Origin: an uncultured bacterium
GTDB taxonomy: Bacteria > Hydrothermota > Hydrothermia > B15-G9 > WFZT01
Reading direction: 5' to 3'
Assembly (NCBI GenBank): GCA_964571845.1
Contig: CAZNDM010000062.1
Coordinates: 18,258-82,257, forward strand
DNA: 64,000 nt
Below the pieces are notes generated by a model. It was not told the origin of the DNA and searched no databases. It worked only from the letters and a program-made list of their open reading frames with translations. The position numbers were made by a program, and so were the translations under genes. The first letter of the stretch is position 1. Every line of letters begins with the position of its first letter. Shown here in pieces: positions 20,762-53,244 of the stretch.

Positions 20762-21075
20762 TTTCAAGCCTCCCTGTAAAATAACCCGTCCAAAGTATAA
20801 TTCAACCAAATGAACCATTCAATCGTGTTAAATACATATATCAGGGACAGAAACCCACCCATCCATCAACCACACTAAAATGCTCTTGAAAAAAGATAGC
20901 ACTCCGGATCAGCCACTTCAAAAAAGTCTGTGGCTATACGACACGAATATGACATTAGTGTCGAAAGAAACCGCTAAAAATTGTTCTGCATAAAACGGGA
21001 AGTGATCGTTTTTTCCTCCGTATTGAAGAGCTTTGATGGCTGCATTTTTGTCCCTGCAAAGTGTAAGACTGTTAG

Positions 21076-21645
21076 GAAATATTTTACCGGTGACCATTTT
21101 CCCTTTAACTTTGCGGAAAAAATCTTTTTCTCTCTTATGCTTGCGTAAGCCCATTTCGTAGCAAAAATCACACTGGCTCCTTTCCCGCTTTGTGAGAGGA
21201 ATCACTTCAAACTTCCACTCCTGCTTGCAGGAGGAACCACTACTAATCTTCTTTCCAGCAAGGCGAGAGGGATCATTTCCAATTTCCCCTCCCACACGGC
21301 GGGAGTGATCACTTCCAATCTCCCCTCCCGCACGGCGGGAGAGACCTTTCCAATCTCCCCTCCCGCACGGCGGGAGGGGACAAAGGGGAGGGCAAAAATA
21401 CCCTTCATTACTCTTCCAGTCAATTTTGTTCATTCTGCCCCCTCCTTAATCCTCCCCGACAAAGTGGGGGGAGGAGATTGATGAGCGTCCCCCACAAAGT
21501 GTTACCGTGTCCTGTGGGGGAGGGAGTCATTGGGAGCCCACAAGACATCCATTTTGTAGGGAAGGAATAAGTGTCCTCCCACAGTACCAAACACTCTGGG
21601 GAAGGAAGTTAAAAAATCACATGCTCCTTTTACCCTAAAGGATTT
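21076..21645 (+). repeat. Copy A of a three-copy composite intergenic repeat family (see copies B and C), forward orientation
   Basis: The 5' arm GAAATATTTTACCGG...CTTTGCGGAAAAAATCTTTTTCTCTCTTATGCTTGCG is shared with copies B and C. The internal array is three 35-bp units TTCCAATCTCCCCTCCCGCACGGCGGGAG(N6) at 21276-21382. The shared core is AAGGGGAGGGCAAAA...CTTCCAGYCAAT...CCTCCCCNACAAAGTGGG...AGATTGATGAG...CAGTACCAAA...AGTTAAAAAATCA..CTTTTACCCTAAAGGA. Confidence 0.6.
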
Positions 21646-21939
21646 CTCCGAAGATTCTCCTGCGAAGTATTAGCACCGGGAGGAAAATGTAGGTGGACCT
21701 TCCCGATAGGAGTAGGAATTGTGGAGATAGTATCATCACTTTAACCTCCCTCTATGACGCTAAAGGGTGTAGAAAGAATTAATCTTGAATCTCGGTGGAA
21801 ACGACACCAGAGAACCATGTGTAATGGAATCTCCGTTGCATGAATTGAAACAGTTGAAAAGAATGGGATTTGGGAACATGTGGGGGCATATGGATGTTTT
21901 TCCGATGCCCATTGGGCATTGTGGAATTTGGGAACATGT

Positions 21940-21970
21940 GGGGGCGGGACCGCTTCGCGGTCCCGCCCCC
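21940..21970. terminator. GC-rich palindrome hairpin (14-bp stem) at the 3' end of the minus-strand OMP gene
   Basis: GGGGGCGGGACCGC-TTC-GCGGTCCCGCCCCC sits 8 bp beyond the stop of 21978..22601 (-). Confidence 0.55.
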
Positions 21971-33043: not shown

Positions 33044-33194
33044 GGTGGTTAATTTTAATGCCAAATAAATAATGGTCAACCATCCCGGACATTTGGAAAA
33101 TATCAAACCACTTCTTCTCAAAAAACTTTTTATCGAACAGCCTCACCGTCCTGTGACACGAGCATTTGTAGAATTTTATTCTGCGAGGAATCTA

Positions 33195-41529: not shown

Positions 41530-41797
41530 AGGGCACGGTTCAAAAATTTAAGAAGGTGGTACACGAAAAATTCATGTCCACACCTGCGGGTGTTGGAATA
41601 ATTTTTTACATTGTAGAAAGATTCTCTTTCTGCTTGCAAGAAGATCCATCTATTCCCCAACTTTCAATTCATGAGAGAAAATCGAGGGAAGTTATCTTCT
41701 CCACAGTGTTAACGCACTGTGGAGAGAGAGTCGAAAAATACATTCCTTCTATTTCCGAAGCTTTTTCGAATAACCCTATGAACTCCTCTGGATGTTT

Positions 41798-42270
41798 GAA
41801 AAATATTTTACCAGTAGTTGCTTTCTCGTCACTTTGTGGAAAAACTCCTTTTTCTCCCTTATTTTTGCGAGGGGATCCACCCACAACCTCCCCCCATTTG
41901 TGAAAATCCACCTACAACCTTCCCTCCCATTTGTGAGATTTCACCTACAACCTCCCGCTCTGCGGGGGTACCCACAACTCCCCTCCCGCCTTGCGGGAGG
42001 GGATTAAGGGGAGGGCAAAAGGACCACTAACTTCTCTTCCAGCCAATCCTCCCCTACAAAGTGGGAAATAAGATTGAAGAGGATCCTCCGCCCACTTATC
42101 GAAGGCTCAAGAAATCTCGCAACAGTTCCGGAGGAGATTGGTAAGTGTTCCCTACTCAGTGCTGACTTACCCCGGGTAAGTATCCTTTCCCAGAGTACCA
42201 AATGCTCAGGAGTGAGTTAAAAAGTCATATCCCCTTTTATACCCTAAAGGAATTTTTTCGAACACCCTCT
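41798..42270 (+). repeat. Copy B of the composite intergenic repeat family, forward orientation
   Basis: The 5' arm GAAAAATATTTTACCAGTAG...CTTTGTGGAAAAACTCCTTTTTCTCCCTTATTTTTGCG is shared with the other copies. The internal array is four ~31-bp units CCACCYACAAC(C)TYCCC... at 41887-42013. The conserved 3' arm runs through ...AGTTAAAAAGTCATATCCCCTTTTATACCCTAAAGGAATTTTTTCGAACACC. Confidence 0.6.
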
Positions 42271-42279
42271 ATGTACTTC

Positions 42280-42308
42280 TTGACCTCACTCTGTCATGAA
42301 TGTATAAT
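42280..42308 (+). promoter_or_regulatory. Candidate sigma-70-type promoter for argC-argB-argG, immediately 3' of repeat copy B
   Basis: TTGACC, a 17-nt spacer and TATAAT (ttgacctcactctgtcatgaatgtataat) lie about 190 nt upstream of the argC ATG. Confidence 0.35.
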
Positions 42309-52645: not shown

Positions 52646-52744
52646 CACAAACTTCCCCGATCTTGCTTTTCCACTGAAAAGTACCATTTTTGATCTTTAA
52701 TGACGAAAGTATAAGTGATTGAGAGCCTCCTTTTATCCTAAACC

Positions 52745-53165
52745 CGCGATGGTGTTTGAAAAACATTTCTCCGGGGTAAAAGGGATATTTAATTTTTTAA
52801 CTTTCTCCCCCCGGGCGTTCGGTACTGAAGGGACACTCATCGTACTCTTTTCCACAGGATACATCAACCCTGTGTGGGAGACACTCATCAATCTTCTCCC
52901 CACTTTGTGGGGAGGATTGACTGGAAGAGAAGTAAGTGGTCTTTTTGCCCTCCCCTCAATCCTCCCGCAATGCGGGAGGGGAGTTGTGGGTACTCCCGCA
53001 GAGCGGGAGATTGTAGGTGAAATCTCACAAACGGGCGGGAAGGTTGCAGGTGGATTTTCACAAATGGGGGGAGGTTGTGGGTCGATCTTCTCGCAAGCAT
53101 AAGGGAGAAAAAGAGAGTTTTTTCCGCAAAGTAAAGTGAAGTATCTACTGGCAAAATATTTTCGG
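52745..53165 (-). repeat. Copy C of the composite intergenic repeat family, inverted orientation
   Basis: The reverse complement matches copy B almost end to end (…CTTTGCGGAAAAAACTCTCTTTTTCTCCCTTATGCTTGCG / CCACCCACAACCTCCCCCCATTTGTGAAAAT… / …AAGGGGAGGGCAAAAAGACCAC…AGTTAAAAAATTAAATATCCCTTTTACCCC…TTTTTCAAACACC). The internal tandem units lie at 52961-53085. Confidence 0.6.
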
Positions 53166-53244
53166 ACATCCTCTTCTCTGACACTTGGCAATTGTAATGA
53201 AACCAAATATAATAAAGTGTTCATTATTTTAGAAGGAGGATGTC

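Follow-up and report, generated by a model that had tools for sequence, protein, structure and literature searches.

MITEs are small elements defined by terminal inverted repeats, target duplications and a highly paired structure, and they carry no transposase (PMC3049150, PMC10969869). Two described repeats have an architecture that matches the locus considered here. The pneumococcal BOX element is assembled from boxA, tandem boxB units in varying number, and boxC (Croucher et al. 2011, PMC3049150), while BrickBuilt, a MITE from Porphyromonas gingivalis, has a minisatellite within it (Klein et al. 2015, PMC4596501). The DNA under study is a stretch of 64,000 nucleotides from an uncultured bacterium (the window), in which a sequence-only reading had noticed three copies of a composite repeat, A, B and C, and had judged that they fit no described repeat class. 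This holds with respect to REP/BIME, CRISPR and retron elements, but it is overstated given the build of BOX and BrickBuilt. Judged from sequence comparisons, the three copies likely constitute a lineage-specific family of MITEs, non-autonomous and characterized by terminal inverted repeats and a hairpin array.

Extent and internal structure of the three copies

The three copies, with their shared blocks in one order, were recovered by MAFFT alignment, repeat finding and low-stringency blastn. In the last of these, B and C share 87% identity across ~305 nt, and repeat finding returned the two as inverted repeats whose arms, 153 and 54 nt long, are 93% identical. A is 61–66% identical to B or C by low-stringency blastn, and A–B and A–C matches were obtained from repeat finding as well. 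No further copy of this type was found by low-stringency blastn in the 64-kb window, nor in the ~10 kb past its end and ~5.5 kb before its start in the source genome, extensions that hold one solo terminus. The segments are present as first noted, but the elements are slightly longer (Table 1) and end in inverted termini that had gone unnoted.

The internal tandem arrays that had been described between conserved arms are borne out in A, B and C by Tandem Repeats Finder and the alignment, and the hairpins quoted at the time are present. Each unit of the array in A contains CTCCCGC-ACG-GCGGGAG, and degenerate, older units can be followed from ~21178; the array of B is succeeded by two CTCCCGC..GCGGGRG hairpins. 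The tandem units of all three copies are contiguous and without spacers. A CRISPR array was rejected on this ground and because the Pfam listings of the neighbouring genes contain no cas domains, and a retron msr/msd was rejected since there is no RT domain among the neighbours (an OMP gene, tdh, an M3 peptidase gene, argC, rlmD and a kbl-like gene).

A, B and C are non-coding. As previously stated, they have no reading frame in common: 2-nt indels separate B from C, and the ORFs differ from copy to copy. ORFs of 163–171 aa overlap the copies, in differing frames and on differing strands, and the 163-aa ORF of C is annotated in NCBI; a search of 5.8 billion proteins returned no homologue of it, only the self-match. 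Exact look-ups of this ORF, and of argC, gave no record.

Termini, target-site duplications and site occupancy

The homology between A, B and C begins and stops exactly at inverted termini of ~16 nt, with the consensus A-GGGTGTTCGAAAAAT, and the flanks are unrelated right up to these termini. B is bounded by TGGATGTTTGAAAAAT ... ATTTTTTCGAACACCCT and C by AGGATGTCCGAAAAT ... TTTTTCAAACACCAT. The termini of A are degenerate, reading AGACTGTTAGGAAAT on the left and ATTTCTCCGAAGATTCT on the right (the latter being AGAATCTTCGGAGAAAT as reverse complement). Taken copy by copy, the terminal inverted repeats did not reach significance against shuffles; their weight derives from position and recurrence. 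A fourth element of the window, Bp, lies immediately upstream of B and had been missed in the sequence-only reading.

A weight matrix for the terminus, with hits scoring at least 15 counted, returned convergent intergenic pairs in the window (41588/41775, 41790/42267 and 52750/53171), in the sister genome L008 (4833/5148 and 17484/17617) and in the sister genome L011 (2837/3322 and 7262/7497). The exceptions to this pairing are two solo sites and one single hit each in L013 and L014, in or beside coding sequence. At this score level ~1 hit is expected in random sequence, versus the 7 that were observed. A second matrix, built only from the ends found in sister genomes, gave 8 hits in the window where ~4 are expected by chance; it recovered both ends of B, both ends of Bp and one end of C, with the four B and Bp ends ranking top. 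In L013, a relative with 79% identical GyrB, no paired termini were found in 21.9 kb.

All-against-all blastn revealed a structure of lineage-specific subfamilies in which interiors are homologous only within the group of A, B and C and within the pair L8a and L8b of L008. GC-rich hairpins are found inside all of the elements, their unrelated interiors notwithstanding. The shared ends and unrelated interiors thus indicate a family that is defined by its termini and its GC-rich hairpins and not by its interior. Its members are 134–593 bp in size, four being located in the window and four in two sister genomes.

Table 1. Positions of the elements and of associated features, in window coordinates unless another locus is named
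Feature	Position	Strand	Description
Copy A, whole element	21066..21658	+	593 bp, degenerate termini
A target-site duplication, left	21053..21065	.	CCTGCAAAGTGTA, 13 bp
A target-site duplication, right	21659..21671	.	CCTGCGAAGTATT, 13 bp
A tandem hairpin array	21254..21376	+	36-nt unit x 3.4 (Tandem Repeats Finder)
Solo terminus-like motif	33127..33142	-	+ strand reads TTTTTATCGAACAGCC; ~1 chance hit of this score expected in window
Element Bp	41588..41775	+	188 bp, termini GGGTGTTGGAATAAT ... TTTTTCGAATAACC, unrelated interior, no target-site duplication
B target-site duplication, left	41776..41788	.	CTATGAACTCCTC, between Bp and B
Copy B, whole element	41789..42268	+	480 bp
B tandem array	41875..41956	+	33-nt unit x 2.6 (Tandem Repeats Finder)
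B target-site duplication, right	42269..42281	.	CTATGTACTTCTT; ends on the TT of the argC -35 hexamer
argC promoter-like site	42280..42308	+	TTGACC-17-TATAAT, 11/12; starts 11 nt after last base of B, outside B
Copy C, whole element	52749..53172	-	424 bp
C tandem array	53003..53077	-	33-nt unit x 2.3 (Tandem Repeats Finder)
kbl-like gene promoter-like site	53185..53213	+	TTGGCA-17-TATAAT, 11/12; 12 nt beyond 5' terminus of C
Solo terminus, L018	3168-3183		score 18.9

Target-site duplications were sought by matching the n bases that end the left flank to the n bases that begin the right one. For A, B and L8b, which lie at three unrelated loci, flank identity is sharply maximal in one and the same register, n = 13, where 10/13 bases match; a score of 10/13 has a chance probability of 2.5 × 10−4 per register. 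For L8a and L11b the peak falls at n = 11–14, displaced by homopolymer or single-base indels, and the register scan detected no target-site duplication for C, Bp and L11a. A first-pass test with 9-mers had given 8/9 matches in four of the eight elements (p = 0.0037 each). This signal is present, but the 9-bp model was replaced by the 13-bp register. The duplication at B shows that this copy inserted within the 13 bp separating Bp from the argC promoter.

The copies occupy differing surroundings. A has an outer-membrane beta-barrel (OMP) gene on one side and the minus-strand tdh-kbl operon on the other. It had been described as lying after tdh, which is incorrect: relative to the minus-strand tdh promoter it is ~245 bp upstream, in the gap that separates tdh from the OMP gene. 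B is situated between an M3 peptidase gene and argC; the neighbours of C are rlmD and kbl2, a second kbl-like aminotransferase gene. The GyrB protein is 96% identical to proteins of a few metagenome-assembled genomes (MAGs), and the more distant named matches, at ~75% identity or less, belong to Candidatus Hydrothermota/Hydrothermales and candidate division WOR-3; the window proteins remain singletons when clustered at 90%. An exact-pattern scan of 185,579 species genomes found the core shared by the copies, GGGGAGGGCAAAA-N10-18-CTCTTCCAG, in no species-representative genome. In JGI metagenomes it occurs on one contig only, from the same organism (L003, copy A), the remaining hits to the pattern being coding-sequence coincidences, as in secA. 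The element has been seen only in one uncultured WOR-3/Hydrothermota-like lineage.

Within this lineage the sites differ in occupancy. Gain and loss were compared among the genomes with 96% identical GyrB, the element survey covering three genomes of one genus-level group. The rlmD-kbl2 gap, which is the site of C, measures 90 bp in L008 and L023 versus 599 bp in the window, and the OMP-tdh gap, the site of A, measures 478 bp and contains no A-type sequence in L014 versus ~1200 bp in the window, although the intergenic DNA of the sisters is only ~60–70% identical, such that these “empty” sites are not nucleotide-clean. Approximately 100 nt more beside C (52646–52748) are likewise missing from the sister genome. 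Conversely, a 134-bp element upstream of sucD is found in L008 and L023 and is absent from the window, and upstream of argC, L008 harbors a 316-bp element that belongs to its own subfamily and has its right end placed as that of B. Several short-read contigs terminate inside elements, as dispersed repeats would predict.

Promoter placement and the choice between readings

Eighteen ends, comprising the 16 element ends and the two solo termini, were scanned outward for promoter-like sites using the consensus criteria of a promoter tool. At 8 of these 18 ends a promoter-like site has its -35 hexamer starting 9–12 nt past the terminus, or 10–13 nt past it if every element boundary is drawn one base further in. 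Five of the eight match the consensus in at least 10/12 positions, namely those of argC (window and L008), sucD (L008), kbl2 (window) and one end of L11a. For a random intergenic end the chance is 0.6%, or 0.27% at the level of at least 10/12, giving binomial tails of 5.6 × 10−14 and ~1 × 10−9, respectively. B adjoins its neighbouring promoter by the 3' arm and C by the 5' arm, and L11a has a promoter-like site past each of its two ends; A and L11b are not adjacent to promoters. Both solo termini display the same spacing, the window motif lying 9–10 nt upstream of GTGACA-18-TATTCT. Several of the right-hand duplication copies finish in the TT of TTGAC(A). The promoters are not part of the element, since in the comparison of sister genomes that of sucD in the window and that of kbl2 in L008 are present without it, and since the intervening 13 nt are the duplicated target. 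Three insertions appear to have struck the argC promoter edge: Bp followed by B in the lineage of the window, and L8a, which has an unrelated interior, in the sister lineage.

A fixed promoter spacing together with two solo termini would also fit a binding site for a host protein. One reading of the repeats accordingly treats them as a host cis-regulatory module, in which the terminal motif is an operator or upstream promoter element and the hairpin block an insulator, possibly as an exapted, secondary role of a MITE. The spacing to near-consensus promoters at 8/18 ends, the solo motifs that hold it in the absence of any element, and the paired promoter-like sites of L11a all speak for such a module. 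Against it, the 13 nt between terminus and -35 hexamer are duplicated across the element, which is the mark of an insertion, and A and L11b have no neighbouring promoter. The genes downstream are also unrelated in function (argC, sucD, the kbl-like gene, a transporter operon and unknowns), a sister genome has the same promoters without the motif (again sucD in the window and kbl2 in L008), and the solo motif of the window has a score at which one chance hit is expected. As the main reading the regulatory cassette raised in the sequence-only reading is therefore unlikely, and what survives of it is a possible secondary effect through the fixed promoter spacing.

The pairing within the elements raises two further readings. 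The copies might be genes for a family of structured non-coding RNAs, the hairpin array and a stem closed by the termini folding into a functional RNA. In keeping with this, the predicted folds of B and C are more stable than those of shuffles (z = −3.9 to −5.2). When 8 distinct units are compared, the 7-bp stem CTCCCGC/GCGGGAG keeps its pairing in 98% of cells and shows two compensatory changes, a result matched by only 21/500 shuffles. The hairpin shape is thus maintained, though kept pairing is equally typical of MITE and REP DNA. Yet both strands of B and C fold about equally, so that the fold energies give no strand assignment, and at gathering thresholds only a tRNA in the whole window passes Rfam. 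A search of the A and B regions at E ≤ 10 likewise remained far from a gathering score, the best scores inside the elements being 13.7–22.5 bits versus thresholds of 38–100 bits. No internal promoter or terminator is found, bar weak consensus hits; the orientation to neighbouring genes is inconsistent, and orthologous sites are empty in genomes with 96% identical GyrB. Moreover, the same termini enclose unrelated interiors, and flanking 13-bp duplications are not expected of an RNA gene. The proposal of a structured RNA, which had been among the original candidates, thus finds no support and is improbable.

The same hairpins could also be regarded as palindromic units of the REP/BIME type, clustered in mosaics and spread by a RAYT (IS200/IS605-like). 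The tandem, GC-rich palindromes of 17–25 nt, strictly intergenic and with stems kept by compensatory change, would agree with this. RAYT/IS200-type single-strand transposition, however, makes neither terminal inverted repeats nor duplications of this kind, and the whole elements carry both. In addition, it is the hairpin sequences that vary between elements and the termini that are shared, and the Pfam listings of the sampled loci include no Y1 transposase, making this a very improbable origin. The sequence-only reading had also named the outcome that would render the copies mundane, which is an ancient local segmental duplication with decayed genes. The ORFs that overlap the copies, one of them annotated, might be taken for such remnants, but their differing frames and strands and lack of homologues, the flanks that are unrelated up to the termini, and the absence of the copies from close relatives effectively refute it, and its probability is close to nil.

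The MITE reading, which was likewise among the original candidates, is the one supported by the terminal inverted repeats, the 13-bp duplications, the site polymorphism and the wider family that shares termini only. The elements have inverted termini at their exact ends, duplications in A, B and L8b, small size without a transposase, and multiple copies with presence or absence between genomes. In anatomy they consist of terminal inverted repeats of ~16 nt around GC-rich hairpin modules, part of them tandem. A transposase encoded elsewhere would bind both termini, and insertion by a 13-bp staggered cut would duplicate the target; the hairpin array could later gain or lose units by slippage or unequal recombination, leading to copies of differing length. 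The insertions overwhelmingly border sigma70-type -35 hexamers on their upstream edge. This placement may reflect either a target preference of the transposase or selective retention of insertions. More specifically, and only tentatively, the putative transposase may target the upstream edge of sigma70-type promoters, perhaps by way of bent or RNA-polymerase-bound promoter DNA, with the downstream end of the 13-bp staggered cut in the TT of TTGACA. The terminal repeat would then be left at about -48 to -63, solo termini included, as a portable upstream promoter module. The elements may also have an effect on transcription.

As for the source of the transposase, ~190 kb of sequence sampled across three genomes yielded no transposase gene with these termini. 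An IS630-like IS in L011, the only IS seen in the sampled loci, was rejected as mobilising partner because its ends are unrelated. The end of IS903 (IS5 family) on the plasmid locus L017, GGCTTTGTTGAATAAATC, resembles the termini GGGTGTTTGAATAAT and GGGTGTTGGAATAAT in its GG start and TGTT-GAA(T/A)AAT core, a match that is short and post hoc. This IS903 is flanked by a 9-bp duplication (CTGCCAGAT), in contrast to the 13 bp of the present elements, and it was rejected as the parent on account of that difference, the likeness of the ends notwithstanding. Nor did an IS5-family transposase with these ends turn up in the sampled loci. The hallmark of the IS4 family (PMC2266710) is a duplication that spans roughly one helix turn or more; the ends of this family look different from the termini described here.

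Comparison with known repeat elements

As a repeat class these elements are ordinary, adding one more lineage-specific MITE that is BOX/BrickBuilt-like in build. They explain long “empty” intergenic stretches, spurious gene calls and contig breaks in MAGs of a poorly known WOR-3/Hydrothermota-like lineage. The 13-bp duplication is unusual among bacterial elements with terminal inverted repeats. Should the near-constant position of the ends, which precede the -35 hexamer on its upstream side by the length of one duplication, prove general, it would represent a rare case of promoter-targeted transposition in bacteria, or else of a transposon end that is selected for as a promoter-upstream module.

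The enterobacterial REP/BIME mosaics are similar in that they too are intergenic and group GC-rich palindromes, interspersed with other motifs, into clusters, but they are spread by RAYTs and have no terminal inverted repeats or target duplications at the level of the element. The Correia elements of Neisseria make a TA duplication, and they differ further in their length of at most ~156 bp, their 26-bp inverted repeats, their own promoter hexamers and the lack of an internal tandem array. They are nevertheless comparable in that they are small, have terminal inverted repeats, lie mostly just upstream of genes and can influence neighbouring promoters (PMC10969869, PMC3049150).

The likeness to BrickBuilt and BOX lies in the composite build, and in both cases it is one of architecture only. 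Like the elements described here, BrickBuilt has a spacerless tandem repeat between “leader” and “tail” subunits and small inverted-repeat ends, and it is always intergenic, multi-copy and of narrow host range. Its unit, however, is 23 nt long and it has promoter elements of its own, whereas here the promoters lie outside, past the duplicated target; host phylum and sequence are also different. With BOX the elements share an intergenic, composite organization in which conserved 5' and 3' modules surround a variable tandem array, as well as terminal inverted repeats, extensive predicted secondary structure and a length set by the number of modules. The resemblance extends to clustering with adjacent insertions, to spurious ORFs in large copies and to confinement to one species group. 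They depart from BOX in that the tandem unit is itself a GC-rich hairpin, in arms of ~70 and ~250 nt as opposed to ~50–60 in BOX, and in having a detectable 13-bp duplication and ends at a fixed distance from -35 hexamers. Relative to BOX and BrickBuilt, then, these elements differ in the GC-rich hairpin unit, the 13-bp duplication and the placement of the ends at promoters.

Insertion sites of the elements

The repeat copies A, B and C are best read as MITEs. At C, no target duplication was found, and the approximately 100 nt that separate the rlmD stop codon from the element are also missing in the sister genome. The 3' flank of C may have been rearranged or may contain a remnant of another element. 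In the sister genome (locus L008), where the kbl2 site is "empty", GAGTTTTTCGGCAC lies immediately 5' of the -35 hexamer and is similar to the inner part of the C terminus, ATTTTCGGACATCC; it may be what a deletion left behind, or a target that resembles a terminus. Upstream of B, at a distance of 13 bp, sits a fourth element that shares its inverted termini with A, B and C but has an unrelated interior, and B appears to have been inserted between this element and the argC promoter. Short-read contigs of the same organisms (L003, L006, L007 and L010; JGI, Logan) terminate within elements, and these repeats therefore fragment assemblies of this lineage.

Features in and around the elements and at other loci
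Feature	Location	Strand	Remarks
rlmD stop codon to C	window 52646-52748
"Empty" kbl2 site	L008 14928-14965
Fourth element	window 41588-41775		188 bp
163-aa ORF in C	window 52733-53224	-	called gene in NCBI
171-aa ORF in A	window 20918-21433	-
G-quadruplex-type motif GGGAGGGGAnnAAGGGGAGGG	window 21372-21392 (A), 41995-42015 (B)
Direct repeat CCCCCACATGTTCCCAAAT	window 21868-21886, 21926-21944	-	exact, 19 nt, 58 nt apart
Solo terminal motif	window 33127-33142		9-11 nt upstream of promoter-like site
Solo terminal motif	L018 3168-3183		9-11 nt upstream of promoter-like site
Hairpin-bearing long intergenic regions	L011 14940-15531, L014 9523-10000		C-rich 5' arm, G-rich 3' arm
IS630-like insertion sequence	L011 20506-21595		DDE_3 and HTH domains

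Reading frames and sequence motifs

The ORF in C has no homologue among the 5.8 billion proteins searched, and its gene call is therefore likely a spurious annotation. Beside A, the probable start codon of tdh is the ATG at 20764, with both GGGAGG and a promoter-like TTGAAT-17-TATACT (20822-20794) ahead of it; a start at the ATG further upstream, at 20818, is less likely. An orthologue with 96% identity is 342 aa long.

Immediately past the final array hairpin, A and B share a conserved, canonical G-quadruplex-type motif, one G tract of which is shortened in C by a 2-nt deletion. The two copies of CCCCCACATGTTCCCAAAT lie outside A, downstream of the OMP gene, and adjoin a GC-rich terminator-like hairpin.

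Related termini and hairpins elsewhere

The partnerless terminal motifs may be one-ended remnants or retained functional ends; alternatively, that in the window may be a chance match. Hairpins similar to those of the elements (for example, CCCTCCCCCGC..GCGGGGGAGGG) are found in two long intergenic regions of sister genomes, neither of which contains a high-scoring terminus pair, and these regions may be older, decayed elements. The ends of the IS630-like insertion sequence in a sister genome, TATTGACCTTTGC, are unrelated to the MITE termini.
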